Below are positions 6,954 to 63,633 of a stretch of DNA of 64,000 bases, one piece after another. The number at the start of each line of letters is the position of its first letter. Within the stretch, counting starts at the first letter, position 1. Location of the stretch: NCBI RefSeq assembly GCF_053078305.1, contig NZ_CP166879.1, one strand, 5' to 3'. Position numbers and translations under genes: made by a program. A model generated the notes under the pieces. The model saw only the letters and a list, made by a program, of their open reading frames with translations, had not been told where the DNA came from and searched no databases.

Positions 6954-8315
6954 ATGTTTGATAATTTAACCGATCGTTTGTCGCGCACGCTGCGCAATAT
7001 CAGTGGCCGTGGACGCCTCACTGAAGACAACGTAAAAGATACGCTGCGCGAAGTGCGCATGGCGCTGCTGGAGGCGGACGTCGCTCTGCCGGTAGTGCGT
7101 GAGTTTATCAATCGCGTAAAAGAGAAAGCGGTTGGTCATGAAGTTAATAAGAGCCTGACGCCGGGGCAGGAGTTCGTCAAAATCGTCCGTAACGAACTGG
7201 TTGCGGCGATGGGCGAAGAGAACCAGACCCTGAACCTGGCTGCGCAACCGCCTGCGGTCGTACTGATGGCGGGCCTGCAAGGTGCCGGTAAAACAACCAG
7301 CGTTGGTAAACTCGGTAAGTTCCTGCGCGAGAAGCACAAGAAGAAAGTGCTGGTGGTTTCTGCTGACGTCTATCGCCCGGCGGCAATCAAACAGCTTGAG
7401 ACGCTGGCAGAGCAGGTGGGCGTTGATTTCTTCCCTTCTGATGTTGGTCAGAAGCCGGTAGATATCGTTAACGCGGCGCTGAAAGAAGCCAAACTGAAAT
7501 TCTACGACGTGCTGCTGGTGGATACCGCTGGTCGTCTGCACGTTGACGAAGCGATGATGGACGAGATCAAACAAGTCCATGCGTCGATTAACCCGGTTGA
7601 AACCCTGTTTGTGGTTGACGCCATGACCGGTCAGGATGCGGCCAATACGGCAAAAGCATTCAATGAAGCGTTACCGCTTACCGGCGTAGTGTTGACCAAA
7701 GTGGACGGCGATGCCCGCGGCGGTGCGGCGCTCTCTATTCGTCACATCACTGGCAAACCGATCAAGTTCCTCGGTGTTGGCGAGAAAACTGAGGCGCTGG
7801 AGCCGTTCCATCCGGACCGCATCGCGTCGCGTATTCTCGGCATGGGCGACGTACTGTCGCTGATCGAAGATATCGAAAGCAAAGTTGACCGCGCGCAGGC
7901 AGAGAAATTAGCCAGCAAGCTAAAAAAAGGCGACGGCTTCGATCTCAACGACTTTCTTGAGCAACTGCGCCAGATGAAAAATATGGGCGGCATGGCCAGC
8001 TTGATGGGCAAACTGCCGGGCATGGGGCAGATCCCGGATAACGTCAAGTCGCAGATGGACGATAAAGTGCTGGTGCGTATGGAAGCCATCATCAACTCAA
8101 TGACGATGAAAGAGCGCGCTAAGCCAGAAATCATCAAAGGTTCGCGTAAGCGTCGTATCGCCGCCGGTTGCGGGATGCAGGTACAGGACGTTAACCGCCT
8201 TCTGAAGCAGTTCGACGACATGCAGCGCATGATGAAGAAAATGAAGAAGGGCGGAATGGCGAAGATGATGAGAAGCATGAAGGGAATGATGCCGCCGGGA
8301 TTTCCTGGTCGCTAA
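6954..8315 (+). CDS. ffh: Signal recognition particle protein Ffh
   Basis: 453-aa ORF with GLQGAGKTT GTPase motif and Met-rich C-terminal M domain. Confidence 0.95.
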   Translation: MFDNLTDRLSRTLRNISGRGRLTEDNVKDTLREVRMALLEADVALPVVREFINRVKEKAVGHEVNKSLTPGQEFVKIVRNELVAAMGEENQTLNLAAQPPAVVLMAGLQGAGKTTSVGKLGKFLREKHKKKVLVVSADVYRPAAIKQLETLAEQVGVDFFPSDVGQKPVDIVNAALKEAKLKFYDVLLVDTAGRLHVDEAMMDEIKQVHASINPVETLFVVDAMTGQDAANTAKAFNEALPLTGVVLTKVDGDARGGAALSIRHITGKPIKFLGVGEKTEALEPFHPDRIASRILGMGDVLSLIEDIESKVDRAQAEKLASKLKKGDGFDLNDFLEQLRQMKNMGGMASLMGKLPGMGQIPDNVKSQMDDKVLVRMEAIINSMTMKERAKPEIIKGSRKRRIAAGCGMQVQDVNRLLKQFDDMQRMMKKMKKGGMAKMMRSMKGMMPPGFPGR

Positions 8316-8373
8316 ATGACCTTATGCGACAGAGTTATTAACTGCTGATTGCATTTTCTCCAGAAATCAGTAA

Positions 8374-8700
<327 letters not shown>

Positions 8701-8718
8701 TCTGTCACGGTGGTCATG

Positions 8719-9267
8719 ATGAGCAAACAACTCACCGCGCAAGCACCTGTTGATCCCATCGTTTTGGGAAAAATGGGTTCGTCTTACGGTATTCGTGGGT
8801 GGCTCAGAGTGTTTTCTTCCACCGAAGACGCCGAAAGCATTTTTGACTATCAGCCCTGGTTTATCCAGAAGGCGGGTCAGTGGCAGCAAGTCCAGCTGGA
8901 AAGCTGGAAGCACCACAATCAGGACATGATCATCAAGCTGAAAGGCGTTGACGATCGTGATGCGGCGAACCTGCTGACGAATTGTGAAATTGTCGTGGAT
9001 TCATCGCAGCTGCCTCAGCTTGAAGAGGGTGACTACTACTGGAAAGACCTGATGGGCTGCCAGGTAGTAACCACTGAAGGCTACGATCTCGGTAAAGTCG
9101 TCGATATGATGGAAACCGGATCCAATGACGTTCTCGTCATTAAGGCAAACCTGAAAGATGCGTTTGGTATCAAGGAACGTCTCGTACCGTTCCTCGATGG
9201 GCAGGTTATCAAGAAAGTCGATCTCACTACTCGTTCAATCGAAGTAGATTGGGATCCTGGTTTTTAA
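8719..9267 (+). CDS. rimM: Ribosome maturation factor RimM
   Basis: [37 protein letters not shown]... Confidence 0.92.
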
Positions 9268-9297
9268 ACCACCGGATAAACGGTAAAAGACGGCGCT

Positions 9298-10065
9298 ATG
9301 TGGATTGGCATAATTAGCCTGTTTCCTGAAATGTTCCGCGCAATTACCGATTACGGGGTAACTGGCCGGGCAGTTAAAAATGGCCTGCTGAGCATCCAGA
9401 GCTGGAGTCCTCGCGACTTCACGCATGACCGGCACCGTACCGTGGACGATCGTCCTTACGGCGGCGGACCGGGGATGTTAATGATGGTGCAACCCTTGCG
9501 GGACGCCATTCATGCAGCAAAAGCCGCGGCGGGTGAAGGCGCAAAGGTGATTTATCTGTCACCACAGGGACGCAAGCTTGATCAAGCGGGCGTCAGCGAG
9601 CTAGCAACGAATCAAAAATTGATTCTGGTGTGCGGTCGCTACGAAGGTATAGATGAGCGCGTGATCCAAACCGAAATTGACGAAGAATGGTCAATCGGCG
9701 ATTACGTTCTCAGTGGTGGTGAGTTACCAGCAATGACGCTGATTGACTCCGTTTCCCGGTTTATTCCGGGAGTACTGGGACATGAAGCCTCGGCAACGGA
9801 AGATTCCTTTGCTGAAGGATTGCTGGATTGCCCGCACTATACGCGGCCTGAGGTGTTAGAAGGGATGGAAGTTCCGCCAGTGTTACTGTCGGGCAACCAT
9901 GCCGAGATACGTCGCTGGCGTTTGAAACAGTCGCTGGGCCGTACCTGGCTTAGAAGACCTGAACTTCTGGAAAACCTGGCTCTGACTGAAGAGCAAGCAA
10001 GGTTGCTGGCGGAGTTCAAAACGGAACACGCACAACAGCAACATAAACATGATGGGATGGCGTAA
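9298..10065 (+). CDS. trmD: tRNA (guanine37-N1)-methyltransferase TrmD
   Basis: 255-aa [16 protein letters not shown]... in the conserved rpsP-rimM-trmD-rplS operon. Confidence 0.95.
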
Positions 10066-10103
10066 GCCCCCGAGATATCAGTTTACCCAGGATAAGAGAT
10101 TAA

Positions 10104-10454
<351 letters not shown>

Positions 10455-10482
10455 GATTTCGCTTAAGCGACATCCTGTTAAG

Positions 10483-10514
10483 AAGGGCTGGCCAATTGGC
10501 TGGCCCTTTTTTTA
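10483..10514 (+). terminator. rho-independent terminator of the trmD operon
   Basis: GGGCTGGCCAATTGGCTGGCCC stem-loop followed by a T-run. Confidence 0.8.
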
Positions 10515-10530
10515 TCTGTTTGCTCGTGTT

Positions 10531-11013
10531 TTAAGGGGTAGTAATCACCACTGCGACGCGACGGTTCTCGGCGCGGCCCTGGGCGGTCTTGTTACTGGCT
10601 ATGGGATATTTTTTTCCTAAACCCTGTGTGGTGAGATTGCCGCGTGGAATTTGTCCACCCATAGCCCATGCATCGGCCACGACATTCGCCCGTTTCAATG
10701 ATAAGCCTTCGTTGTAACTGTCTTCACCATAGTTATCGGTGTGTCCATCCATACGGGCATGTGTTAGCCCTGTCGAGGCCAATTTGGCTGCCATGGTTTG
10801 GATCTGTTGCTGGCTTTCCGGGAGCAATTTGTAGTCATTTTTTGCGAACAGAATGGCATCTGATAAGCCCAGCGACCAGTCGCCGGCGGATTCAGTAAAT
10901 CCATAAGATTGCATAGCGGCGACTTGCTCAGGAGTAAACTTTCCCTGAGGGGACTGGCAGCCAGTCAGTATTAGTGAGGTGAAAATCAGGGGTGCTACCA
11001 GGTGCTTTATCAT
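10531..11013 (-). CDS. yfiB: OmpA-family lipoprotein YfiB (peptidoglycan-binding)
   Basis: 160-aa ORF with lipobox LTGC and C-terminal OmpA-like domain. Confidence 0.9.
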   Translation of the reverse strand: MIKHLVAPLIFTSLILTGCQSPQGKFTPEQVAAMQSYGFTESAGDWSLGLSDAILFAKNDYKLLPESQQQIQTMAAKLASTGLTHARMDGHTDNYGEDSYNEGLSLKRANVVADAWAMGGQIPRGNLTTQGLGKKYPIASNKTAQGRAENRRVAVVITTP

Positions 11014-11028
11014 ATCGATATATCCTTG

Positions 11029-12255
11029 TTATCTCACCAGCTTTTCGGCACGCTGGTGTTTGGCCTGATACATATTGTGATCGGCAAGCTCTTGTAATTT
11101 TTCCGCAGAGGCGTGCTCAATGGTCATCGCGTAACCAATGCTTAATGTCATGGTGGTCTGATGGCCATTATGAAGATCAAACGGGAGATTAAAGATTTGT
11201 GTCAGTGCTGAGCATATCTGCTGCACTTCAGATTCCGACTGTACATCATAGAGCACCATAGCGAATTCATCGCCGCCCAGGCGGTATGCTTTATGTCGCA
11301 GCCCGCCAAATTCAGCTAACCGTTTTGCGATTTCAATCAAGACTCTATCGCCCGTCGCATGACCCCAGGTATCATTGATATATTTGAAATTATCGCCATC
11401 AAGAAATAGTAACGCCGACGTTTTTCGGGCATCGGAATTGTTCATCAACGTATTGATGCCGCTACGAAACGCTGCGCGGTTAGCCAGCCCGGTTAATGGG
11501 TCATGTAGCGCGGTACGCAGAAGCTGCGCATTTTTGGCCTGTAAACGAAGCTGCCACTCTTCCATTTCATCCAGCAGACTGTTGAAGTCTAGAGCGAAGC
11601 GGTGAAACTCAGCGATACGTTCTTCCGAAACTCGTCGGGAAAAATTGCGGTTGGAACGCACATCATGTACGACATCGGTGATATTTTTCAGTGCTTCCAC
11701 CAGGCCATTGTGCAAATGGCGGGTGAGGGTAATTGCGATTCCTGATGCCAGCAGAATACAACCGGTCAGTACGGCGAGCGAAAACCAGATAAAATGGCTG
11801 ATTGAACTGTCGCGAGCGGTTAAGCGTACTTCGCCAATGGTTTCGCCATTGTGACGAATCGGCTGAATGATGGGGGCAGGGAAGAGCCAGTGGCTTATGA
11901 AATTGCTGAAAGTATCGCCTGGATCCTTACGGGTGTAATGCCAGGATGCCAGAATATTTTGCTGCTTATCACGTACTTCTGCAGTTGAAAATTGCCCTTG
12001 CTGGCCCAGCGCTGCCAGTGTTTCAGTTGCTGCAGGGCCATCGGCAAAAACGACAGCTGCTTCCAGACTGTAAGTCATTGTTGCTGCTGTCAGTGCCAGG
12101 TTTTTTTGCGCGTACTGTTTCAGGGTCAGCACCGAGGTCACGGAAAGCAGCAACCAGATCAGCATCATAGTGATAAATATGCTGGTCATACTGATGTTGC
12201 GTAATGCTCTTTTAAACGTGGGGCGCTTATTAAGAGAATTATCGTTATCCATCAT
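11029..12255 (-). CDS. dgcN: Diguanylate cyclase DgcN (YfiN)
   Basis: 408-aa ORF with N-terminal membrane/periplasmic region and C-terminal GGDEF domain (RLGGDEF). Confidence 0.92.
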
Positions 12256-12763
12256 TTTTCTTCCGTGCGAGCATTAAGACATCCGGGTTGACCTTTACAC
12301 CGCTACGCGATAAGGCATCCAGGTTTACGGCAAATCTGACGTCATTATTGTGGATGATCAGACAAAAGGCGCTACCAATAATGCACTCGGTATTTTGTTC
12401 GGCAATTAATAATAACGCCTTTGACGGATATTGTTCGGTTAATTCCATCTGGAATGTCGGTGACTCGTTGCCAAAATAAAAACCATTGCAGCCTGAAATC
12501 ATCGCCTCTTGTTGAGTGTGAATGATGACAGGCAGATAAGGCAAAGATGTCGCGGCATTCTCTTGTAGGGCGGTACTAAAACGTGAAGATGAAAAGATAC
12601 ATAACTTTGGTGGCCCTGATAGCGCAGGCCAGCGGGTGTAACTGACAATACCGGAAACCATCATACGCACGTTTTTCGCAACGTCAGAAGGCTCCTGAGC
12701 GAGTATTGGTGCTCCCGTCAGCAGGAGAATCAGCAGTAAGAACAGTCGGTGAGAAAAACGCAT
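12245..12763 (-). CDS. yfiR: Periplasmic repressor of DgcN, YfiR
   Basis: 172-aa ORF with signal peptide; overlaps the dgcN start (operon). Confidence 0.9.
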
Positions 12764-12912
12764 TCAGGGATCCCCACCATCTTCGCTCGAAATGCATCGA
12801 TATTTTTTCAGAATGCTCATTAAAATATCATTTTTTCATGCGATCGTCATCATTGTGAGAAATAAAACATAATGAGTAAAATCTTATGTTTAATTTATTT
12901 GTGGGGTTTTAA

Positions 12913-13278
12913 TTAATTTAATCGTATTGTGCTGGCATTTTCATCAGCCCCTTTTTGCCATACTTCATGCAGTTGGCTTGTATTTTCAACATTGTTGCAG
13001 CTGGCAGGAAAGCTTTTACCGGAAAGTCCTCGGGCATAAGTAAAATCGGTCTGGCAAGTTTTCTTTTGTCCTTCGGCATATCCTTTAAGGTATAGACCGC
13101 GATCCGCCTGTGAATCGCTAAATGCATCGTCATCTTTTATGGCGCTGCCCGATATCGCATCTTCCATACCAACATCATACCAGTCGGTGCTGGTCAAGGT
13201 TGGCGCGTGAGTATAAGGATCAATCTGGCATCCGCTAACCAGTAAAGCCAACAAGGGGGCGATAAACTTTTTCATCAT
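12913..13278 (-). CDS. yfiL: Lipoprotein YfiL
   Basis: MKKFIAPLLALLVSGCQ... lipobox; start placed at the internal Met pair (ORF track extends to 13317). Confidence 0.8.
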   Translation of the reverse strand: MMKKFIAPLLALLVSGCQIDPYTHAPTLTSTDWYDVGMEDAISGSAIKDDDAFSDSQADRGLYLKGYAEGQKKTCQTDFTYARGLSGKSFPASCNNVENTSQLHEVWQKGADENASTIRLN

Positions 13279-13323
13279 TTCTTTCTCCTTTTTCAAAGCA
13301 TAGCGGATTGTTTTCAAAGGTGA

Positions 13324-13416
13324 TGTAAATTTATCTATACAGAATCAAGGGTTAAAAGCGCGAATAAATTGCTTATGTAAAGAAAAATGTACGAAATATG
13401 GATTGAAAACTTTACT
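13324..13416 (+). promoter_or_regulatory. aroF promoter region with three TyrR boxes
   Basis: TGTAAATTTATCTATACA (13324-13341), TGTAAAGAAAAATGTACG (13376-13393) and TGGATTGAAAACTTTACT (13399-13416) fit TGTAAA-N6-TTTACA. Confidence 0.75.
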
Positions 13417-13487
13417 TTATGTGTTATCGTTACGTCATCCTCGCTGAGGATCAACTATCGCAAACGAGCATAAACAGGATCGCCATC

Positions 13488-14558
13488 ATGCAAAAAGACG
13501 CGCTGAATAACGTACATATTACCGACGAACAGGTTTTAATGACTCCGGCACAACTGAAGGCCGCTTTTCCATTAAGCCTGCAACAAGAAGCCCAGATTGC
13601 TGACTCGCGTAAAACCATTTCAGATATTATCGCCGGGCGCGATCCTCGTCTGCTGGTAGTATGTGGCCCTTGTTCCATTCATGATCCGGAAACTGCTCTG
13701 GAATATGCTCGTCGATTTAAAGCCCTTGCCGCAGAGGTCAGCGATAGCCTCTATCTGGTAATGCGCGTCTATTTTGAAAAACCCCGTACCACTGTCGGCT
13801 GGAAAGGGTTAATTAACGATCCCCATATGGATGGCTCTTTTGATGTAGAAGCCGGGCTGCAGATCGCGCGTAAATTGCTGCTTGAGCTGGTGAATATGGG
13901 ACTGCCACTGGCGACGGAAGCGTTAGATCCGAATAGCCCGCAATACCTGGGCGATCTGTTTAGCTGGTCAGCAATTGGTGCTCGTACAACGGAATCGCAA
14001 ACTCACCGTGAAATGGCCTCCGGGCTTTCCATGCCGGTTGGTTTTAAAAACGGCACCGACGGCAGTCTGGCAACAGCAATTAATGCTATGCGCGCCGCCG
14101 CCCAGCCGCACCGTTTTGTTGGCATTAACCAGGCAGGGCAGGTTGCGTTGCTACAAACTCAGGGGAATCCGGACGGGCATGTCATCCTGCGCGGTGGTAA
14201 AGCGCCGAACTATAGCCCTGCGGATGTTGCGCAATGTGAAAAAGAGATGGAACAGGCGGGACTGCGCCCGTCTCTGATGGTAGATTGCAGCCACGGTAAT
14301 TCCAATAAAGATTATCGCCGTCAGCCTGCGGTGGCAGAATCCGTGGTTGCTCAAATCAAAGATGGCAATCGCTCAATTATTGGTCTGATGATCGAAAGTA
14401 ATATCCACGAGGGCAATCAGTCTTCCGAGCAACCGCGCAGTGAAATGAAATACGGTGTATCCGTAACCGATGCCTGCATTAGCTGGGAAATGACCGATGC
14501 CTTGCTGCGTGAAATTCATCAGGATCTGAACGGGCAGCTGACGGCTCGCGTGGCTTAA
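13488..14558 (+). CDS. aroF: DAHP synthase, Tyr-sensitive
   Basis: [30 protein letters not shown]..., 356 aa from the ATG at 13488. Confidence 0.93.
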
Positions 14559-14568
14559 GAGGTTTATT

Positions 14569-15690
14569 ATGGTTGCTGAATTGACCGCATTACGCGATCA
14601 AATTGATGAAGTCGATAAAGCGCTGCTGAATTTATTAGCGAAGCGTCTGGAACTGGTTGCTGAAGTGGGAGAGGTGAAAAGCCGCTTTGGACTGCCTATT
14701 TATGTTCCGGAGCGAGAGGCATCTATGTTGGCCTCGCGTCGTGCAGAGGCGGAAGCTCTGGGTGTACCGCCAGATCTGATTGAGGATGTTTTGCGTCGGG
14801 TGATGCGTGAATCTTACTCCAGTGAAAACGACAAAGGATTTAAAACGCTTTGTCCTGCGTTACGCCCGGTAGTTATCGTTGGCGGCGGCGGTCAGATGGG
14901 ACGTCTGTTCGAGAAGATGCTGACACTCTCGGGTTATCAGGTGCGGATTCTGGAGCAACATGACTGGGATCGAGCGGCTGATATTGTTGCCGATGCCGGA
15001 ATGGTGATTGTTAGTGTGCCAATCCACGTTACTGAGCAAGTTATTGGCAAATTACCGCCTTTACCGAAAGATTGTATTCTGGTTGATCTGGCATCAGTGA
15101 AAAATGGACCATTACAGGCCATGCTGGCGGCGCACGATGGCCCGGTACTGGGGTTGCACCCGATGTTCGGCCCGGACAGCGGTAGCCTGGCAAAGCAAGT
15201 TGTGGTCTGGTGTGATGGACGTAAGCCGGAAGCATACCAATGGTTTCTGGAGCAAATTCAGGTCTGGGGCGCTCGGTTGCATCGTATTAGCGCTGTCGAG
15301 CACGATCAGAATATGGCGTTTATTCAGGCTCTGCGCCACTTTGCTACTTTTGCTTACGGGCTGCACCTGGCAGAAGAAAATGTTCAGCTTGAGCAACTTC
15401 TGGCGCTCTCTTCGCCGATTTACCGCCTTGAGCTGGCGATGGTCGGGCGACTGTTTGCTCAGGATCCGCAGCTTTATGCCGACATCATTATGTCGTCAGA
15501 GCGTAATCTGGCGTTAATCAAACGTTACTATAAGCGTTTCGGCGAGGCGATTGAGTTGCTGGAGCAGGGCGATAAGCAGGCGTTTATTGACAGTTTCCGC
15601 AAGGTGGAGCACTGGTTCGGCGATTACGCACAGCGTTTTCAGAGTGAAAGCCGCGTGTTATTGCGTCAGGCGAATGACAATCGCCAGTAA
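14569..15690 (+). CDS. tyrA: Bifunctional chorismate mutase / prephenate dehydrogenase (T-protein)
   Basis: 373-aa [33 protein letters not shown]... Confidence 0.95.
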
Positions 15691-16910: not shown

Positions 16911-16946
16911 ATCAATAAAAAAGGCCCCCCGATTTGGGAGGCCTTA
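16911..16946 (-). terminator. pheA attenuator (leader terminator)
   Basis: AAGGCCCCCCGATTTGGGAGGCCTT GC-rich hairpin with a U-run on the minus strand, between pheL and pheA. Confidence 0.85.
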
Positions 16947-16991
16947 TTGTTCGTCTTCGCATTCTGTTTCACACGACGAAACGCCTCCCAT

Positions 16992-17039
16992 TCAGGGGAA
17001 GGTAAAAAAGAATGCGAAGAAAAACGGTGTGTGTTTCAT
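16992..17039 (-). CDS. pheL: pheA leader peptide, 15 aa MKHTPFFFAFFFTFP (below the ORF-track size cutoff)
   Basis: Minus-strand ATGAAACACACACCGTTTTTCTTCGCATTCTTTTTTACCTTCCCCTGA; seven Phe codons in 15. Confidence 0.9.
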   Translation of the reverse strand: MKHTPFFFAFFFTFP

Positions 17040-17142
17040 GTTTGTTTCCTTAAGTGACTTTAGTACAGTACCCGTACTGTTTTCACGCTGTCAACAAAAA
17101 ACGCGCCCGAAGGCGCGTTGGCGATACACTCAATATAAAGGA

Positions 17143-20335: not shown

Positions 20336-20395
20336 CCTAAAGAATCAAGACGATCCGGTACGCGTGATTTTCTTTTCACATTAATCTGGTCAATA

Positions 20396-20427
20396 ACCTT
20401 GAATAATTGAGGGATGACCTCATTTAA
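20396..20427 (+). promoter_or_regulatory. sigma32 heat-shock promoter of clpB
   Basis: CCTTGAATAA (-35), 13-bp spacer, CCTCATTTA (-10), about 40 bp upstream of the clpB start. Confidence 0.75.
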
Positions 20428-20464
20428 TCTCCAGTAGCAACTTTGATCCGTTATGGGAGGAGTT

Positions 20465-23038
20465 ATGCGTCTGGATCGTCTTACTAATAAATTCCAGCTT
20501 GCTCTTGCCGATGCCCAATCACTTGCACTCGGGCACGACAACCAATTCATCGAACCACTTCATTTAATGAGCGCCCTGCTGAATCAGGAAGGGGGTTCGG
20601 TTAGTCCTTTGTTAACATCAGCTGGCATAAATGCTGGCCAGTTGCGCACAGATATCAATCAGGCATTAAATCGTTTACCGCAGGTTGAAGGTACTGGTGG
20701 TGATGTCCAGCCATCACAGGATCTGGTGCGCGTTCTTAATCTTTGCGACAAGCTGGCGCAAAAACGTGGTGATAACTTTATCTCGTCAGAACTGTTCGTT
20801 CTGGCGGCACTTGAGTCTCGCGGCACGCTGGCCGACATCCTGAAAGCAGCAGGGGCGACCACCGCCAACATTACTCAAGCGATTGAACAAATGCGTGGAG
20901 GTGAAAGCGTGAACGATCAAGGTGCTGAAGACCAACGTCAGGCTTTGAAAAAATATACCATCGACCTTACCGAACGAGCCGAACAGGGCAAACTCGATCC
21001 GGTGATTGGTCGTGATGAAGAAATTCGCCGTACCATTCAGGTGCTGCAACGTCGTACTAAAAATAACCCGGTACTGATTGGTGAACCCGGCGTCGGTAAA
21101 ACTGCCATCGTTGAAGGTCTGGCGCAGCGTATTATCAACGGCGAAGTGCCGGAAGGGTTGAAAGGCCGCCGGGTACTGGCGCTGGATATGGGCGCGCTGG
21201 TGGCTGGGGCGAAATATCGCGGTGAGTTTGAAGAACGTTTAAAAGGCGTGCTTAACGATCTTGCCAAACAGGAAGGCAACGTCATCCTGTTTATCGACGA
21301 ATTACATACCATGGTCGGCGCGGGTAAAGCCGATGGCGCAATGGACGCCGGAAACATGCTGAAACCGGCGCTGGCGCGTGGTGAATTGCACTGCGTAGGT
21401 GCCACGACGCTTGACGAATATCGCCAGTACATTGAAAAAGATGCTGCGCTGGAACGTCGTTTCCAGAAAGTGTTTGTTGCCGAGCCTTCTGTTGAAGATA
21501 CCATTGCGATTCTACGTGGCCTGAAAGAACGTTACGAATTGCACCACCATGTGCAAATTACTGACCCGGCAATTGTTGCAGCGGCGACGTTGTCTCATCG
21601 CTACATTGCTGACCGTCAGCTGCCGGATAAAGCCATCGACCTGATCGATGAAGCAGCATCCAGCATTCGTATGCAGATTGACTCAAAACCAGAAGAACTC
21701 GACCGACTCGATCGCCGTATCATCCAGCTCAAACTGGAACAACAGGCGTTAATGAAAGAGTCTGATGAAGCCAGTAAAAAACGCCTGGATATGCTCAACG
21801 AAGAACTGAGCGACAAAGAACGTCAGTACTCCGAGTTAGAAGAAGAGTGGAAAGCAGAGAAGGCATCGCTTTCTGGTACGCAGACCATTAAAGCGGAACT
21901 GGAACAGGCGAAAATCGCTATTGAACAGGCTCGCCGTGTGGGGGACCTGGCGCGGATGTCTGAACTGCAATACGGCAAAATCCCGGAACTGGAAAAGCAA
22001 CTGGAAGCCGCAACGCAGCTCGAAGGCAAAACTATGCGTCTGTTGCGTAATAAAGTGACCGACGCCGAAATTGCTGAAGTGCTGGCGCGTTGGACGGGGA
22101 TTCCGGTTTCTCGCATGATGGAAAGCGAGCGCGAAAAACTGCTGCGTATGGAGCAAGAACTGCACCATCGCGTAATTGGTCAGAACGAAGCGGTTGATGC
22201 GGTATCTAACGCTATTCGTCGTAGCCGTGCGGGGCTGGCGGATCCAAATCGCCCGATTGGTTCATTCCTGTTCCTCGGCCCAACTGGTGTGGGGAAAACA
22301 GAGCTTTGTAAGGCGCTGGCGAACTTTATGTTTGATAGCGACGAGGCGATGGTCCGTATCGATATGTCCGAGTTTATGGAGAAACACTCGGTGTCTCGTC
22401 TGGTTGGTGCGCCTCCGGGATATGTTGGTTATGAAGAAGGTGGCTACCTGACCGAAGCTGTGCGTCGTCGTCCGTATTCCGTTATCCTGCTGGATGAAGT
22501 GGAAAAAGCGCATCCGGATGTCTTCAACATTCTGTTGCAGGTACTGGATGATGGGCGTCTGACTGACGGGCAGGGGAGAACGGTCGACTTCCGTAATACG
22601 GTTGTCATTATGACCTCTAACCTCGGTTCCGATTTGATTCAGGAACGCTTCGGTGAACTGGATTATGCGCACATGAAAGAGCTGGTGCTCGGTGTGGTTA
22701 GCCATAACTTCCGTCCGGAATTCATTAACCGTATCGATGAAGTGGTGGTCTTCCATCCGCTGGGTGAACAGCACATTGCGTCGATTGCGCAGATTCAGTT
22801 GAAACGTCTGTATAAACGTCTGGAAGAACGTGGTTATGAAATCCACATTTCTGACGAGGCGCTGAAACTGCTGAGCGAGAACGGTTACGATCCGGTCTAT
22901 GGTGCACGTCCTCTGAAACGTGCAATTCAGCAGCAGATCGAAAACCCGCTGGCACAGCAAATACTGTCTGGTGAATTGGTTCCGGGTAAAGTGATTCGCC
23001 TGGAAGTTAATGAAGACCGGATTGTCGCCGTCCAGTAA
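20465..23038 (+). CDS. clpB: Chaperone ClpB (AAA+ disaggregase)
   Basis: [27 protein letters not shown]...; two AAA+ modules (GEPGVGKT and GPTGVGKT); 857 aa from the ATG at 20465. Confidence 0.96.
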
Positions 23039-23481: not shown

Positions 23482-25023
<1,542 letters not shown>

Positions 25024-25108
25024 CCTTAAAGAAGCGTACTTTGCAGTGCTCACACAGATTGTCTGATAGAAAGTGAAAAGCAAGGCGTCTTGCGAAGCAG
25101 ACTGATAC

Positions 25109-25184
25109 GTCCCCTTCGTCTAGAGGCCCAGGACACCGCCCTTTCACGGCGGTAACAGGGGTTCGAATCCCCTAGGGGACGCCA
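25109..25184 (+). tRNA. gltW: tRNA-Glu (UUC) in the 16S-23S spacer
   Basis: GTCCCCTTCGTCTAGAGGCCCAGGACACCGCCCTTTCACGGCGGTAACAGGGGTTCGAATCCCCTAGGGGACGCCA, 76 nt with CCA end. Confidence 0.97.
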
Positions 25185-25377
25185 CTTGCTGGTTTGTGAG
25201 TGAAAGTCACCTGCCTTAATATCTCAAAACTCATCTTCGGGTGATGTTTGAGATATTTGCTCTTTAAAAATCTGGATCAAGCTGAAAATTGAAACACTGA
25301 ACAACGAGAGTTGTTCGTGAGTCTCTCAAATTTTCGCAACACGATGATGAATCGAAAGAAACATCTTCGGGTTGTGA

Positions 25378-28280
<2,903 letters not shown>

Positions 28281-28373
28281 ACAACGCCGAAGATGTTTTG
28301 GCGGATTGAGAGAAGATTTTCAGCCTGATACAGATTAAATCAGAACGCAGAAGCGGTCTGATAAAACAGAATT

Positions 28374-28493
28374 TGCCTGGCGGCCTTAGCGCGGTGGTCC
28401 CACCTGAACCCATGCCGAACTCAGAAGTGAAACGCCGTAGCGCCGATGGTAGTGTGGGGTCTCCCCATGCGAGAGTAGGGAACTGCCAGGCAT
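28374..28493 (+). rRNA. rrfG: 5S ribosomal RNA
   Basis: TGCCTGGCGGCC...GGGAACTGCCAGGCAT, 120 nt. Confidence 0.97.
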
Positions 28494-40121: not shown

Positions 40122-40150
40122 AAATAATGCCGGGCTTAAACCCGGCATTG
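40115..40150 (-). terminator. srmB rho-independent terminator
   Basis: Minus strand AATGCCGGGTTTAAGCCCGGCATT hairpin followed by ATTTTTAT. Confidence 0.7.
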
Positions 40151-45630: not shown

Positions 45631-46586
45631 TGAAGCAACTTTGGTTTGCCATGTCATTAGTGACAGGTAGCCTGTTATTCTCTGCTAACGCCTCGGCCAC
45701 TCCCGCGTCCGGGGCGTTATTACAGCAGATGAACCTGGCCAGTCAGTCACTGAATTACGAGCTGTCATTCATCAGCATCAATAAACAGGGTGTTGAGTCT
45801 CTGCGTTATCGACATGCACGCCTCGATAACCGTCCTCTTGCACAATTGTTGCAAATGGATGGCCCGCGCCGGGAAGTGGTACAGCGCGGCAATGAAATCA
45901 GCTATTTTGAACCGGGCCTTGAACCGTTTACTCTTAATGGCGATTACATTGTTGATTCTCTGCCATCGCTCATCTATACCGATTTCAAACGCCTTTCTCC
46001 TTACTACGACTTTATCTCCGTCGGGCGCACGCGTATTGCTGATCGTCTTTGTGAAGTTATTCGCGTGGTTGCTCGTGATGGCACACGCTACAGCTACATC
46101 GTGTGGATGGACACCGAATCGAAATTACCGATGCGGGTTGATCTTCTTGATCGCGATGGTGAAACGCTGGAACAATTTCGCGTGATTGCTTTTAACGTCA
46201 ATCAGGATATCAGCAGCAGTATGCAGACGCTGGCGAAGGCAAATTTGCCGCCGTTGCTTTCTGTTCCTGTAGGTGAAAAAGCTAAATTCAGCTGGACGCC
46301 AACCTGGTTGCCACAGGGTTTTAGCGAAGTTTCCAGTAGTCGACGTCCGCTACCGACGATGGACAACATGCCTATCGAATCACGTCTCTATTCCGACGGA
46401 TTATTCAGCTTCTCGGTAAACGTTAACCGCGCTACGCCATCGAGCACCGATCAGATGTTGCGCACCGGACGCAGAACCGTCAGTACAAGCGTACGTGATA
46501 ACGCTGAAATCACCATTGTCGGTGAACTGCCGCCGCAAACGGCGAAACGCATTGCCGAGAATATTAAGTTCGGGGCAGCGCAATGA
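45630..46586 (+). CDS. rseB: SigmaE regulatory protein RseB
   Basis: 318-aa ORF with signal peptide. Confidence 0.95.
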   Translation: MKQLWFAMSLVTGSLLFSANASATPASGALLQQMNLASQSLNYELSFISINKQGVESLRYRHARLDNRPLAQLLQMDGPRREVVQRGNEISYFEPGLEPFTLNGDYIVDSLPSLIYTDFKRLSPYYDFISVGRTRIADRLCEVIRVVARDGTRYSYIVWMDTESKLPMRVDLLDRDGETLEQFRVIAFNVNQDISSSMQTLAKANLPPLLSVPVGEKAKFSWTPTWLPQGFSEVSSSRRPLPTMDNMPIESRLYSDGLFSFSVNVNRATPSSTDQMLRTGRRTVSTSVRDNAEITIVGELPPQTAKRIAENIKFGAAQ

Positions 46587-47062
46587 TCAAAGAGTGGGCT
46601 ACCGTCGTCTCCTGGCAAAACGGGCAGGCGCTGGTCAGTTGTGATGTTAAAGCCTCATGCAGCAGCTGCGCTTCACGCGCCGGTTGCGGTAGCCGCGTGT
46701 TGAATAAACTTGGCCCGCAAACCACGCATACCATTGTCGTACCCTGTGATGAGCCGTTAGTGCCGGGGCAAAAAGTGGAATTGGGGATCGCCGAAGGCAG
46801 CCTGCTTAGCTCCGCATTACTGGTTTATATGTCGCCGCTGGTGGGATTATTCCTCATCGCTTCGCTATTTCAGCTACTCTTTGCTTCTGACGTCGCAGCA
46901 TTATGTGGTGCGGTCCTCGGCGGTATTGGCGGGTTCCTGATTGCGCGTGGCTACTCGCGTAAGTTTGCTGCCCGGGCAGAATGGCAACCGATCATCTTAA
47001 GCGTGGCATTGCCGCCTGGCCTTGTGCGATTTGAAACATCTTCGGAAGACGCGAGCCAGTGA
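46583..47062 (+). CDS. rseC: SigmaE regulatory protein RseC
   Basis: 159-aa ORF overlapping the rseB stop. Confidence 0.93.
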   Translation: MIKEWATVVSWQNGQALVSCDVKASCSSCASRAGCGSRVLNKLGPQTTHTIVVPCDEPLVPGQKVELGIAEGSLLSSALLVYMSPLVGLFLIASLFQLLFASDVAALCGAVLGGIGGFLIARGYSRKFAARAEWQPIILSVALPPGLVRFETSSEDASQ

Positions 47063-47259
47063 TTTCACTGGCTTTGTTGCATTTTGCATAACAAATGCGA
47101 GGACGTTTCCAGATACCACAATCCATACGGTATGAACATTTCCTCGCCTCAATGTTGTAGTGTAGAATGCGGCGTTTCTATTAATACAGACGTTAAGCTC
47201 AGAACAGCGACTTCTAAAAGCCTGGTTAACCGGGCATTAAGGCACAATAATCATACTTT

Positions 47260-49059
<1,800 letters not shown>

Positions 49060-50101: not shown

Positions 50102-50291
50102 ATGAGATAAATCTCCCGTGGCTAACGACATCCCCCGTCGTTGTGTATAGAATATTCCCCCGAAGTTTAAGGTTGGCACCTCCAGGTTGCCACGGCACAC
50201 GAAACAGCGTTGGTCCCCATATACCGCTAAACTGAAACTGCAGCGAAGCAGTTAGCAGAGCCATGTATATCAGGTCTGTTTCGTGTGCTGA

Positions 50292-51904
<1,613 letters not shown>

Positions 51905-53767: not shown

Positions 53768-53791
53768 AAATAATACCGTTCTCTTTAAAAA

Positions 53792-53835
53792 GTAAAACCC
53801 CCGAACTGGTAAGGAACGGGGGTTTTACTTTGTAA
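53792..53835 (+). terminator. acpS operon terminator
   Basis: GTAAAACCCCCG...CGGGGGTTTTAC hairpin followed by TTTGTAACTTT. Confidence 0.8.
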
Positions 53836-53844
53836 CTTTAATTT

Positions 53845-53868
53845 AGTGCAGCACGCACCCTCAACAAC
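53845..53868. repeat. 24-nt element, copy 1 of an imperfect direct repeat (second copy at 54093-54116)
   Basis: AGTGCAGCACGCACCCTCAACAAC; contains the internal palindrome GTGC...GCAC. Confidence 0.6.
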
Positions 53869-54462: not shown

Positions 54463-54732
<270 letters not shown>

Positions 54733-54937
54733 TTACCGTTAAATTATTTTAAAATCAGTAAGTTGTATCGAGTTTGTATGCTTTACAGTTATTAACTTAC
54801 TGTATGTTGATCCAGTGTATTTAACCTTGATAAACTCAGTCCAGCAACACAAAACCGCAACACATTGCATTTTGTCCCGTAGAAAAGACTTGTATGTGTG
54901 AGCTTGTTTTCTGCGCCTACGCAGATAAGGATTGAGA

Positions 54938-56335
54938 ATGCCGCGCACTGTAACACATAATCCGGATAGCCCCAATAATGACGATGTTTTAGCCGCATCT
55001 GAAAAATGGGACGCCTGTAAACCCCCCTATACCAGCGCACACATAAAAATCTGTGTTGCTGCCGCCAAAATCATCCTCGCAGCTTCCGGCGTGGCTCGCC
55101 GTTCCAAATACGAAAAAGAGAACTATCTCCGTATCGATTTCAGCAAAGCCGGTAAGGTTACATTTTACGCCGAGTTTCCAAAAAAGATGGGCCTCAAGGG
55201 TAAAAAGCTCGGCGAGTGGCCGGAGCTCGCTATCCAGCTGGCGCGCGAAAAAGCGCTAGGTATGGCTGACTGTGGCTTGCGGGCAGAGTCCGTACATGCA
55301 GCGCTGGAAATGTACCGGGATGACCTCAAAGCCAAAGTCGCCCGGCAGAAGCTGAGCCCGGACAGTTTCACAACCTACGGGGTGCGTATCGACCGGATTA
55401 AAGCAACGTTCGGCGAGCGTGAGGTGTTCAGCGACGTAACATACAATCGGCTAGTGGAAGTGCTGGACGAGTGGATCGCCACTCGCTCGAACAATAACGC
55501 CCTGGAGTTGTTTGCCGAGCTCCGTCGGTTCTGGAAGTTCTGCGCACCTACTCTTTGTAACGGTCGCAATGTTGCTGCCAGTCTGCCAGATGATTATGTT
55601 TCCTCCCGCGTACAGAAACCCACCCCCACACGGCTTTTTACCGATATTGAGTCAATCGCCCGGCTCTGGCTCAATGTTGCCGCCTGCACCTCTGTACACC
55701 AGAAGAATGCTGTTCGCTTCATGATCATCACCGGCGTTCGTCCGATTAATGTCCATAACCTGCGCTGGGACTACGTTCACGAGGAGACTGGCGAAATTGT
55801 TTATCCTGAAGGGGTTATCGGCATGCGAGGGGCTATGAAAACACAAAAGGCTTTCCGCCTGCCAATAACGCCGGAGATCCGGCGGATTATCGACGAGCAG
55901 AAAGCATGGCGTGATTCAGTTCCTGAGTGCAACAGGGATTATGTATTTTTGCAGCCGCGTGATCCAATGCAGCCATTTTCAAAACGATCACTGGATAAGC
56001 TAGTGAAAACATACAGCCCGGATGGGGCTGTAAAAGGATTAAAACATGATGGGACTGTTAAAGGGAAAGACGGTGCATTTAATACGATGTGCCGTAAATT
56101 CCTTAAGAGCAATGTTATTGCCTTGATGAAGGAAAGAGGCTATTCCCGATCAGACCGAAGGGAAATCAGCCTCCTTTGCCTTCACCACTCCAGCAAGTCA
56201 GATGACCCGATGGCAGAACATTACGACTTTTCTGATGAGATTTTGCAGGAAGAGATTGCGTTAAAGCGCGAAGCTTTCGAGGCTCACGAGCGGAGCATAC
56301 TTGCGCAGGTGGCATTGCTACGGCGGCGAGGTTAA
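54938..56335 (+). CDS. Putative site-specific integrase (tyrosine recombinase-like, P4-type N-terminal domain)
   Basis: About 465-aa ORF at the island edge, convergent with an AlpA-like gene; N-terminal region resembles integrase arm-binding domains; start codon uncertain (TTG at 54932 or ATG at 54938). Confidence 0.6.
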   Translation: MPRTVTHNPDSPNNDDVLAASEKWDACKPPYTSAHIKICVAAAKIILAASGVARRSKYEKENYLRIDFSKAGKVTFYAEFPKKMGLKGKKLGEWPELAIQLAREKALGMADCGLRAESVHAALEMYRDDLKAKVARQKLSPDSFTTYGVRIDRIKATFGEREVFSDVTYNRLVEVLDEWIATRSNNNALELFAELRRFWKFCAPTLCNGRNVAASLPDDYVSSRVQKPTPTRLFTDIESIARLWLNVAACTSVHQKNAVRFMIITGVRPINVHNLRWDYVHEETGEIVYPEGVIGMRGAMKTQKAFRLPITPEIRRIIDEQKAWRDSVPECNRDYVFLQPRDPMQPFSKRSLDKLVKTYSPDGAVKGLKHDGTVKGKDGAFNTMCRKFLKSNVIALMKERGYSRSDRREISLLCLHHSSKSDDPMAEHYDFSDEILQEEIALKREAFEAHERSILAQVALLRRRG

Positions 56336-56532
56336 TACCGGCTGCGACACTTTTGAATAAAAGCGTCGACATTGCGGCGCTCATAACGAACTACTTTTGC
56401 ACTGAAACGAATTGGTGCCAGGATAGCCCGATGACGATGCTTAATATTCCACTCACATAGCGTTTTCTGTGTAATACCTAACTTTTGGCATACTTCATCC
56501 GGGGTGAGTAAATCGTCGGGTTTCTCGCTCAT
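56332..56532 (-). CDS. AlpA/excisionase-family small DNA-binding protein
   Basis: 66-aa ORF LLTPDEVCQKLGITQKTLCEWN with HTH-like pattern; overlaps the upstream helicase stop by 4 nt. Confidence 0.6.
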   Translation of the reverse strand: MSEKPDDLLTPDEVCQKLGITQKTLCEWNIKHRHRAILAPIRFSAKVVRYERRNVDAFIQKCRSRY

Positions 56533-57923
56533 GCTATACCTCTCTTTTTCATGGCATCGAGCAGGATGTCCTGCACTGTTCGTTTTGAGTTGCGCCGCTC
56601 CATCACCATTTCGTCCATAGTGTCGGCAGCAATAATGTGGTGAATAAATACCGGACGATTGTGTCCGGCTTGTATCTGCCTGGTGGGGCCGATACGTTCA
56701 ATAATTTGCTGATATTGCTCCAGGTCCCACCAGTGTGAGAAAAATACCAGTATATTTCCGCCGTCTTGCATGTTCAGGCCGTGGCCCGCGCTGGCTGGGT
56801 GTGCAAAGAGAACAGGAATCTTTCCGGAATTCCAGTCGCGCAGTGTCTGTGGATCCTGGTCGAGGTGACGACCGCGAGGGAATGCTTTAAGCAAGCGTTC
56901 AAGATCGTGTTTCCAGTGATAAGCAACCAGCACAGGTGCGCCAGCTGCTTCGGCCAGTATGCTGTCCAGCGCCTGTAGTTTGGTGTCATGCAGTTCTGAC
57001 CAACTTCCGGTGTCGTCTGTGTATACTGCGCCACTGGCGATTTGAAGACACTTCAGTGTCTTTGCCGCGGCGTTCGGTGCTTCGATGCCTTCGCCATTCA
57101 GCTCGAGGAACATTTCCTTTTCCATTTCACGATACTGCTGACGGGCCTTCGGGGGCATATCCACGCGGATTACGTTATGGATGGGGTCTTTGATATCGAA
57201 CCAGTCGGCCGCATCCAGCGAGAGGGTCACATCGGCTAACGCTCGCTGTATTTCACCCTGTGAGTGAGCAAAAGGCTCCAGTTTGGTCCAGCTCTGCCCC
57301 GGAAACTGTATCGATTTGAACCAGCGTGAGGTAAATGCGCCGTAAGTGCGCCCGAGACGTTGCCCCAGGTCCACAAACCACGATTGTCCCCACAAATCTA
57401 CCAGGCCGTTCGGTGCTGGCGTACCGGTGAGATTTATCCAGCGCCGGACATACTTGTGCGCCACTTTGCCCAGCGCCGCCGCGCGCTTACCACCACCTCG
57501 CAGCCGGAAGGATTTTAGCCGGGTGCTTTCATCTGGAATGACAGTACCGAACGGCCATCGTTCTCCCAATTCCTCAACCAGCCAGACAAGGTTATCGTAG
57601 TTGATGGTGAACACGCTCGCGTTGTTGTTCGCCAACGCTGCAGAGCGCGCTTTGGCATTACCAACAATTGGTTGTACCTCGATATTGCGCAAATGCCCCC
57701 ACTTCAGTGCTTCATCCGGCCAGGTGTTTGCTGCAACGCGTAGCGGCGCGAGGACCAGCGCGGGGCGTGTTTCTGCTCCAGCCATGAAAAGATCTTCCAG
57801 CGTGGTGAGTGTCGCTACGGTTTTACCCATCCCCATCCCTGCCCAGATGTTGCCGCGCAGAATGTCGGTTTGGTGATTGATTATGAGGTTTTGATAAAGT
57901 CGGGGGTGGAATATGTTATTCAT
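56529..57923 (-). CDS. Phage-type SNF2/DEAD-like helicase
   Basis: Walker A GMGMGKT, motif II DEST, C-terminal helicase domain; start placed at the Met of MNNIFHPRLYQ (ORF track extends to 57998). Confidence 0.8.
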   Translation of the reverse strand: MNNIFHPRLYQNLIINHQTDILRGNIWAGMGMGKTVATLTTLEDLFMAGAETRPALVLAPLRVAANTWPDEALKWGHLRNIEVQPIVGNAKARSAALANNNASVFTINYDNLVWLVEELGERWPFGTVIPDESTRLKSFRLRGGGKRAAALGKVAHKYVRRWINLTGTPAPNGLVDLWGQSWFVDLGQRLGRTYGAFTSRWFKSIQFPGQSWTKLEPFAHSQGEIQRALADVTLSLDAADWFDIKDPIHNVIRVDMPPKARQQYREMEKEMFLELNGEGIEAPNAAAKTLKCLQIASGAVYTDDTGSWSELHDTKLQALDSILAEAAGAPVLVAYHWKHDLERLLKAFPRGRHLDQDPQTLRDWNSGKIPVLFAHPASAGHGLNMQDGGNILVFFSHWWDLEQYQQIIERIGPTRQIQAGHNRPVFIHHIIAADTMDEMVMERRNSKRTVQDILLDAMKKRGIA

Positions 57924-57985
57924 TAATACACCTATGGTAGAATATGTGTCAATTCTCTCTCTATATATAACTAACGGAGGCGGGT

Positions 57986-58783
57986 ATGCCCCTGGCAAAA
58001 ATACTTACAAAACAAGTTTCTTTATTAACTGTTTTTTCAGCGTTAGCTTATGTGATGGCATATTCTTTTCAGAAAGGTGTTGCATCGTATTATGGCTATC
58101 CAGCCCTTTTTATTAAAATAGATTTAAATACGCTATTGTATTCGGCTGTATGGCTTTTGTTTTTTAGTTTTTTATTTCTCGGTGCCTTATACGCGACATT
58201 GATGTTTGATTTGAAAGGGAAATATTATGTTCCATTTATTATATTTATAGTGGTTATGCTAATACCTAATTTTTACATAATAGGATTCCATTGGCCTTTT
58301 GGTTATTTCTCAGAAACCTCTGTGATGAGTGTTGGAGATATTTTATTATTTGCTCTGCTTTTGTTGAATTACCACAATGCGGTGTCCGCGTCAATCCATA
58401 GTAAGAGACACGAACATCATATGGATAGCATTAGAAAATTTGGGAGGCTTGCAGAGTATAAAGACGTATTTTATTATATCGATTTAAAAATCCTAAAATC
58501 AGCTTTTCCTTTAGGGGTGATGACATTATTGATATTGAGCTATACCTTCGGGAAGGTTACTGCATTTAAAAATAACGAATATTATATGGTAGATGGTAGT
58601 AATACTAAAGTGTTGCTCAATTCATTTGGTAGTGGTTTTGTTGTTGGTGATTGTGAGTCCAATAGCGCAAAATTTGAATTTGTTAATGATTTAAAAGGGA
58701 TGAAATTCACAGTCATGTCCTCTAAAAAGGAAATAGCTAAATTAAAAGAGTGTTTCGAAACACGTGTTAAAAATACGGATTAA
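57986..58783 (+). CDS. Hypothetical polytopic membrane protein (265 aa), AT-rich cargo gene
   Basis: GGAGG 7 bp upstream of the ATG; about five predicted hydrophobic helices plus a roughly 70-aa hydrophilic C-terminus; divergent from the helicase; no family recognised. Confidence 0.65.
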   Translation: MPLAKILTKQVSLLTVFSALAYVMAYSFQKGVASYYGYPALFIKIDLNTLLYSAVWLLFFSFLFLGALYATLMFDLKGKYYVPFIIFIVVMLIPNFYIIGFHWPFGYFSETSVMSVGDILLFALLLLNYHNAVSASIHSKRHEHHMDSIRKFGRLAEYKDVFYYIDLKILKSAFPLGVMTLLILSYTFGKVTAFKNNEYYMVDGSNTKVLLNSFGSGFVVGDCESNSAKFEFVNDLKGMKFTVMSSKKEIAKLKECFETRVKNTD

Positions 58784-58795
58784 AGTATAAGTCTT

Positions 58796-59083
58796 TTATC
58801 TTTTATTGCGGCTTAAAATAATTTCCTCCAGATTTTTGCTATCCAGCACCACCACGGTAAAGCCCAGCTCGCGCAGCCGCTTGTGCTCGCGCAACTGGTC
58901 GGCGCGTGGTGCTTTGCCGGGTGCTTTGCATTCAACGAAAACAAGACGGCCGCCGGGTAGCAGAACAATGCGATCCGGTACCGAGCGGCGACCAGGTGAT
59001 ATGAACTTAAAGGCGACCCCACCAGCCTTTTTCACTTCGGCGACGAGATGCTTCTCGATTAGGTTTTCACGTTCATATATCAT
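58796..59083 (-). CDS. VRR-NUC domain nuclease
   Basis: 95-aa ORF with PDRIVLLPGGRLVFVECKAPGKAPRADQLREHKRL, matching the VRR-NUC pattern of PD...(D/E)xK with a conserved Q. Confidence 0.8.
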   Translation of the reverse strand: MIYERENLIEKHLVAEVKKAGGVAFKFISPGRRSVPDRIVLLPGGRLVFVECKAPGKAPRADQLREHKRLRELGFTVVVLDSKNLEEIILSRNKR

Positions 59084-59125
59084 ATGACGTTTCCTTTAGC
59101 CCTCTAGTTTGAGGGCTGGGAATCT

Positions 59126-59677: not shown

Positions 59678-59682
59678 GTTTT

Positions 59683-60192: not shown

Positions 60193-60277
60193 TAAAGCAC
60201 CAAAAACAATCTGTTAAGGATAGCTATATGATACATATATCTTCAATGATGTCATGTATCTGATTTGTGAGCTGTGA

Positions 60278-62341: not shown

Positions 62342-62387
62342 GTGTTTACCTTGGTTTTTATTCTATTAACTGATTAAAAGATTAATT

Positions 62388-63017: not shown

Positions 63018-63069
63018 TTATACGCCTAATCAGTAGCCCGGTGTTTAACCGGGCGTCTATGAAGTAGGG

Positions 63070-63618: not shown

Positions 63619-63633
63619 GGGTATTTCCTTAAA

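Follow-up and report, generated by a model that had tools for sequence, protein, structure and literature searches.

Three intact genes, in the order yfiR, dgcN (yfiN) and yfiB, lie on the minus strand at positions 10531-12763 of the window, the 64,000-nucleotide stretch of DNA that was analysed. We regard it as practically certain that they make up the canonical yfiR-dgcN(yfiN)-yfiB operon of the E. coli chromosome, undamaged and in what is essentially its K-12 allele. The locus is already known, being the K-12 system itself rather than a relative of it.

Gene organisation

The ORF list for window positions 8500-15000 shows that the operon runs from 12763, where the yfiR ATG begins, to 10531, where the yfiB stop codon ends. 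The preliminary description had claimed a complete operon with exactly these limits, and the claim stands: the three ORFs are intact, and the RefSeq annotation of the same DNA carries the same labels, yfiR, dgcN and yfiB. Their lengths of 172, 408 and 160 residues equal those of K-12 b2603, b2604 and b2605. The operon sits in its usual E. coli surroundings: on one side it is flanked by the plus-strand genes rpsP, rimM, trmD and rplS. On the other side is yfiL, a minus-strand gene for a lipoprotein of 122 residues, followed by aroF-tyrA on the plus strand.

The three adjacent genes are tightly spaced on their common strand, with an overlap and then a short gap as they are read from 12763 to 10531 (Table 1). 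The arrangement had been called overlapping, which is correct for yfiR and dgcN (11 nt) but not for dgcN and yfiB, which are 15 nt apart. The yfiR/dgcN overlap is annotated likewise in K-12 and in E. coli ET350, and suggests that the translation of the two genes may be coupled. A Shine-Dalgarno-like element, GGAAG, is present 5' of the dgcN ATG.

Table 1. Positions of the genes, domains, motifs and intergenic features of the yfiR-dgcN-yfiB locus in the window.
Feature	Position	Strand	Details	Basis
yfiR	12245..12763	-	Periplasmic repressor of DgcN, DUF4154/YfiR family, 172 aa	ORF, Pfam, NCBIfam, K-12 identity
dgcN (yfiN)	11029..12255	-	Inner-membrane diguanylate cyclase, 408 aa	ORF, NCBIfam, K-12 identity
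yfiB	10531..11013	-	OmpA/Pal-like outer-membrane lipoprotein, 160 aa	ORF, NCBIfam, PDB match
yfiL-yfiR intergenic region	12764..12912	-	149 nt, AT-rich, presumed promoter region	Sequence
YfiR predicted signal peptide	12698..12763	-	aa 1-22, cut before QE	Hydrophobic segment aa 3-25
yfiR stop region/dgcN start overlap	12245..12255	-	11 nt, ATGATGGATAA	ORF coordinates and sequence
DgcN periplasmic sensor domain CHASE8	11818..12123	-	aa 45-146; "PAS-like" in the literature	Pfam 1.3e-33, full length (1-102/102)
DgcN GGDEF catalytic domain	11047..11511	-	aa 249-403	Pfam 1.5e-43
DgcN primary inhibitory (Ip) site position	11293..11304	-	aa 318-321, reads GLRH not RxxD	
DgcN GGDEF active-site motif	11263..11277	-	aa 327-331, codons GGCGGCGATGAATTC	
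dgcN-yfiB spacer	11014..11028	-	15 nt, with Shine-Dalgarno-like AAGGA; minus strand ...GAGATAACAAGGATATATCGATATG	Sequence
YfiB lipobox	10957..10968	-	LTGC, aa 16-19; Cys19 lipid acceptor, Gln20 at +2	
YfiB OmpA-like peptidoglycan-binding domain	10561..10851	-	aa 55-151	Pfam
Hairpin between convergent rplS and yfiB	10480..10511	both	Terminator-like site on + strand	

Conservation and comparison with K-12

Positions 10400-12900 were compared by megablast with all complete RefSeq E. coli genomes (n=5426). A match was found in 5425 of them, and in 5370 it covers at least 80% of the query. All of the matches to the locus are chromosomal, with a median of one copy per genome. The top match is E. coli ET350, which is 99.8% identical and has yfiB, dgcN, yfiR and rplS annotated beneath the match. 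In K-12 MG1655, b2603-b2604-b2605 show the same order, the same lengths, the same 11-nt overlap and 15-nt gap, and the same neighbours rplS, yfiL and aroF.

A codon-by-codon comparison with MG1655 gave 16 nucleotide differences in all over the three genes. One of these is in yfiR (against b2603) and 11 are in dgcN (against b2604); all 12 are synonymous, and the amino acid sequences of YfiR and DgcN are both 100% identical to those of K-12. The remaining four are in yfiB (against b2605), where they produce two amino acid differences, V10I and S125G; the yfiB allele of the window is nucleotide-identical to that of ET350. Alignment of the three genes to b2603-b2605 and to ET350 revealed no indels, frameshifts or internal stops; frameshifts and stop codons had been singled out beforehand as the defects that would count against an intact operon. 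The exclusively synonymous changes in yfiR and dgcN, taken with the almost universal presence of the locus, indicate that purifying selection acts on these as functional genes.

The encoded proteins

All three proteins are assigned to their families by Pfam, NCBIfam and PDB matches with E-values that run from 1e-16 to 1e-151, and chance can thus be discounted. The check that had been proposed, an alignment with YfiBNR proteins already characterised, bears out the assignment, in that structures of YfiR, YfiB and TpbB/YfiN from P. aeruginosa are the top PDB matches; the PDB entries for the P. aeruginosa system are 4YN7, 4ZHU-4ZHY, 5EB0-5EB3, 4IOB and 7A7E. The YfiBNR system of P. aeruginosa PAO1 (YfiR, TpbB/YfiN and YfiB) has the same three-protein architecture, with GGDEF intact.

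YfiR matches the Pfam family DUF4154 ("YfiR/HmsC-like") at 4.9e-31, and passes the NCBIfam equivalog sequest_YfiR with 168 bits against a cut-off of 85 bits. Structures of P. aeruginosa YfiR match it at 1e-16, with an identity to the PAO1 protein of only about 32% over the aligned region. Cys55, Cys92, Cys127 and Cys134 align with P. aeruginosa Cys71, Cys110, Cys145 and Cys152, so that both of the conserved cysteine pairs are kept. The signal peptide is probably cleaved after an A-x-A-like motif, ILA.

DgcN passes the NCBIfam DgcN/YfiN equivalog with 503.9 bits against a cut-off of 325 bits. Hydrophobic segments at about residues 20-46 and 150-179 lie on either side of the CHASE8 domain, and the GGDEF domain matches the structure of the P. 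aeruginosa TpbB/YfiN GGDEF domain (7a7e) at 5.5e-29. The active-site motif itself is present, in agreement with the earlier claim of an intact GGDEF. No RxxD product-inhibition site was found anywhere in DgcN; five residues upstream of GGDEF the protein reads GLRH, and E. coli YfiN has been published with GLRH and lacking RxxD (PMC10127611). Residue 280 is a serine, and the published secondary-site residue "N280" does not fit the numbering of the protein in the window.

Of the features that define YfiBNR/HmsCDE systems, and that can be assessed from a sequence, all were recognised but one, a HAMP linker between the second transmembrane segment and the GGDEF domain, which the profiles did not confirm. 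A HAMP domain has been assigned to YfiN in the literature, but the linker at DgcN residues 180-245 gave no Pfam match to HAMP even at E<=1. In NCBIfam, residues 169-243 aligned weakly with the sensor-kinase models BaeS and PRK15347.

YfiB contains an OmpA domain (Pfam, 2.6e-17) and passes two NCBIfam models, PRK09967 (345.9 bits against a cut-off of 155) and OMP_LP_YfiB (229.9 bits against 128). Structures of P. aeruginosa YfiB match it at 1.5e-31. The lipobox that had been reported as intact is indeed so, and Cys19 aligns in the HMMER alignment with Cys26, the lipid acceptor of the P. aeruginosa protein (role from PMC4887326). In the same alignment N59, D93, G96 and R108 correspond to the P. 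aeruginosa peptidoglycan-site residues N68, D102, G105 and R117 (roles also from PMC4887326). F39 and W46 align with P. aeruginosa F48 and W55, while P. aeruginosa L43, the site of the activating mutation L43P, is replaced by M34. All of the linker residues that have been mutagenised in Shigella are kept, namely C19-Q20, P22-Q23, E29-Q30 and S36 (tested in PMC8948675).

Of the two residues at which YfiB differs from K-12, V10I falls in the hydrophobic core of the signal peptide, and S125G is in the OmpA-like domain, at a position that is not conserved and where Pseudomonas has Ala. Both substitutions are probably neutral.

Proposed mechanism

In the mechanism proposed here, DgcN is an inner-membrane cyclase that crosses the membrane twice and exposes a CHASE8/PAS-like domain to the periplasm; a linker leads to the GGDEF domain, which lies in the cytoplasm and makes c-di-GMP from GTP. 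YfiR, located in the periplasm and held by two disulfide bonds, would bind to the periplasmic domain of DgcN and keep the cyclase off. YfiR would lose its activity, and DgcN so be turned on, under reducing conditions or when DsbA is missing. Sequestration of YfiR by YfiB at the outer membrane would be expected to relieve the repression of DgcN. By analogy with the P. aeruginosa structures (PMC4887326), activated YfiB would span the periplasm, bind peptidoglycan and clamp the YfiR dimer, leading to release of YfiN. Once released, DgcN would run unchecked, because it has no RxxD product-inhibition site.

Several of these steps have been described in MG1655. There YfiR represses YfiN, and the repression is lifted by DTT or by loss of DsbA (PMC4992967). 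A second envelope stress then sends YfiN to the Z ring, via FtsZ and ZipA, and division is arrested (PMC4992967). Raised c-di-GMP results in less motility and in more cellulose and biofilm. The missing I-sites lead to unrestrained synthesis, which drains GTP on gluconeogenic carbon sources and produces an antibiotic-tolerant growth arrest (PMC10127611). YfiR repression and redox control can reasonably be expected to carry over to the strain studied here from MG1655, whose YfiR and DgcN are identical.

The role of YfiB

The evidence for YfiB comes from several species. In P. aeruginosa its sequestration of YfiR has been shown both structurally and genetically (PMC4887326). The YfiR interface of the window is not identical to that of P. 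aeruginosa, because E163 and Q187 of the P. aeruginosa protein are A145 and K169 here; a further P. aeruginosa residue, I169, is L151. By homology it is probable that YfiB sequesters YfiR in E. coli as well, and genetic support for this comes from Shigella, in which knockout of yfiB causes both c-di-GMP and biofilm to fall (PMC8948675). In E. coli MG1655, however, YfiN still relocates to mid-cell on envelope stress in a yfiB knockout (PMC4992967), which indicates that YfiB is not the sensor for this relocation.

This last observation bears on the description of the locus as a tripartite envelope-stress module. The parts that concern YfiR, namely repression and dependence on redox state and DsbA, hold in E. 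coli, but the requirement for all three proteins does not extend to the stress relocation of YfiN, for which YfiB is unnecessary. The tripartite label rests mainly on P. aeruginosa, and is better supported there than in E. coli.

It is therefore worth considering whether the E. coli locus is essentially a two-component redox switch formed by YfiR and DgcN, with YfiB being accessory, or a separate Pal-like lipoprotein, rather than the stress sensor. The behaviour of the yfiB knockout is in keeping with this, as is the description of Salmonella enterica, which has a YfiR-repressed YfiN cyclase in a yfi operon that lacks yfiB (PMC4992967), whereas the window has all three genes. It is also relevant that two of the P. 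aeruginosa YfiR residues that contact YfiB, E163 and I169, are among those replaced here. On the other hand, yfiB is kept 15 nt downstream of dgcN in nearly all E. coli; its product passes an equivalog model and has kept its lipid anchor, peptidoglycan-binding residues and linker residues; and deletion of the near-identical yfiB of Shigella lowered c-di-GMP and biofilm. We consider a two-component switch to be a serious possibility, though clearly not a probable one, and we retain a role for YfiB in the sequestration of YfiR.

A system that the literature describes as homologous, and likewise tripartite, is HmsCDE of Yersinia pestis, which consists of a periplasmic repressor (HmsC), a cyclase (HmsD) and an OmpA-like lipoprotein (HmsE). 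Its output is the biofilm that blocks the flea, and CsrA activates the translation of hmsE. The outputs also differ between Pseudomonas, where they are Pel/Psl and small-colony variants, and E. coli, where they are cellulose, motility, division arrest and GTP depletion.

Transcription of the operon

We infer that yfiR, dgcN and yfiB are co-transcribed, because yfiR and dgcN overlap by 11 nt, dgcN and yfiB are 15 nt apart, and a simple scan gave no terminator-like sites on the minus strand inside the cluster. The yfiR Shine-Dalgarno sequence, GGTGGGGA, lies within the intergenic region upstream of yfiR, which has three differences from K-12. A consensus scan of this spacer on the minus strand found no promoter at 9/12 or better. 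A weaker candidate for the yfiR promoter, by our own reading, would be ATGACG-17 nt-TGaTATTTT.

With no strong consensus promoter given by the scan, it could be argued that the genes, although intact, are effectively silent in this strain, and form a cryptic module that contributes nothing under natural conditions. A chromosomal YfiN-GFP fusion is below detection in MG1655, implying that native expression is low, and the phenotypes generally need deletion of yfiR or over-expression (PMC4992967). Against this, the purifying selection noted above, with 12 of 12 nucleotide changes in yfiR and dgcN being synonymous and the locus present in 5425 of 5426 genomes, makes a silent module extremely improbable; a functional operon is the reading adopted here.

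Downstream of yfiB is a hairpin, located between the convergent genes rplS and yfiB. On the plus strand its predicted energy is -28.3 kcal/mol and a U-run follows, which makes it a strong terminator of rplS. The fold is less stable on the strand of yfiB, at -18.2 kcal/mol; the stem there is interrupted by an internal loop, the U-run is poor, and the consensus scan found no convincing terminator for yfiB on that strand. No Rfam family was found in 10531-12912 in a scan of the whole window at gathering thresholds.

YfiL

The gene upstream of yfiR, yfiL (12913-13278), lies 149 nt away on the same strand, and no terminator-like site was found on that strand. Its product matches DUF2799 in Pfam and a lipoprotein equivalog in NCBIfam. 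Literature on E. coli CFT073, as cited in PMC10294631, names the locus yfiLRNB. These observations raise the question of whether the functional unit comprises four genes, yfiL-yfiR-dgcN-yfiB, with the DUF2799 lipoprotein being co-transcribed and forming part of the signalling. However, yfiBNR of P. aeruginosa and hmsCDE of Y. pestis have been published as three-gene units, the AT-rich gap that follows yfiL resembles a promoter region, and the literature examined gave no functional data for YfiL. A four-gene unit is thus unlikely, and the three-gene operon is preferred.

A more specific proposal can be made on the basis of adjacency and the lack of a detected terminator, which is that YfiL, transcribed together with the operon, would act as its fourth component and modulate the signalling of YfiR and YfiB in enterobacteria. 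We put this forward as a long shot. A weaker alternative to it is that the V10I/S125G allele of YfiB may change the set-point of the signalling.

Significance

The locus is a textbook part of the E. coli core genome; as a discovery it is small, and its use is in annotation. A strain with the complete module would be expected to respond to redox or envelope stress with a burst of c-di-GMP, division arrest and antibiotic tolerance, as in MG1655. The biological point that is touched on is the role in E. coli of YfiB, and possibly that of YfiL.

Other regions of the window

Positions 1-54713 of the window are collinear, in reversed orientation, with K-12 MG1655 2754747-2699673, at an identity of 98-99%. 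Three small intergenic differences from K-12 were noted, at ffh/rpsP, in the rrnG 16S-tRNA-Glu spacer, and at srmB/yfiE.

K-12 lacks the region 54724-64000, which starts directly past yfhL and represents the integrase-proximal arm of a rare prophage. The genes of this arm include those for an integrase, a SNF2 helicase, a YfbU-domain protein, a family-A DNA polymerase and an Enc34-type ssDNA-binding protein, and several of its ORFs have no Pfam match. A query of 54600-64000 is covered to at least 80% in only 17 of the 5426 complete E. coli genomes, the best match being O55:H7 CB9615, at 97.8%. The induced phages vB_EcoM-606R2, 689R2 and 611R5 cover 56% of the same query, at 97.4%.

Flanks of the yfiR-dgcN-yfiB operon

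The yfiR-dgcN-yfiB operon is preceded by yfiL, which encodes a lipoprotein with a single substitution (A100T) relative to YfiL of E. coli K-12 MG1655. No terminator was detected between yfiL and yfiR, and the CFT073 literature, as cited in PMC10294631, names the locus yfiLRNB. At the other end, yfiB and rplS are convergent, and the hairpin lying between them (10480–10511) is asymmetric between the two strands. On the rplS strand it folds at -28.3 kcal/mol and is followed by a U-run, while on the yfiB strand it contains A-C mismatches and the fold is weaker, at -18.2 kcal/mol. The hairpin owes its strength as an rplS terminator to G-U pairs.

Region collinear with K-12

A complete rrn operon (16S, tRNA-Glu(UUC), 23S and 5S) is found at 23482–28491, and is the counterpart of K-12 rrnG. 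This operon and the RNAs matched in Rfam are all expected in a region collinear with K-12.

Features of the window outside the yfiR-dgcN-yfiB operon
Feature	Position	Strand	Remark
yfiL	12913–13278	-	DUF2799 lipoprotein gene; same strand as yfiR, 149 nt upstream
Phe leader	16915–17040		Rfam match
RyfD	20346–20484		Rfam match
AsrC	46547–47378		Rfam match
rncO	50162–50376		Rfam match
OhsC	53789–53865		Rfam match
Tyrosine integrase	54932–56335	+	prophage arm
SNF2 helicase	56529–57998	-	prophage arm
ORF, 265 aa	57986–58783	+	prophage; no Pfam match
YfbU-domain protein	59126–59677	-	prophage arm
ORF, 169 aa	59683–60192	-	prophage; no Pfam match
Family-A DNA polymerase	60278–62341	-	prophage arm
ORF, 209 aa	62388–63017	+	prophage; no Pfam match
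Enc34-type ssDNA-binding/DUF2815 protein	63070–63618	-	prophage arm

Three intergenic regions differ from K-12. The ffh-rpsP interval (8315–8330) is some 112 bp shorter, the srmB-yfiE interval (about 40125–40149) has around 150 bp fewer, and the spacer between 16S and tRNA-Glu in rrnG (25088–25109) is unlike that of K-12. Our guess is that these are small intergenic repeat elements, present or absent.

Prophage arm

Directly past yfhL (54463–54723), the sequence from 54724 to 64000 has no counterpart in K-12. It makes up one arm of a prophage, the integrase-proximal one. A search of 5426 complete E. coli genomes with 54600–64000 as the query found just 17 that cover at least 80% of it, the best match being O55:H7 CB9615 (97.8%). 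The induced phages vB_EcoM-606R2/689R2/611R5 cover 56% of the query at 97.4%.

A Pfam search of the ORFs of 265, 169 and 209 residues gave zero matches at E≤0.001. Records of related phages annotate a 'TIR-like domain-containing protein' within this module, which raises the possibility that one of the three is an accessory or defence-type gene carried by the phage.
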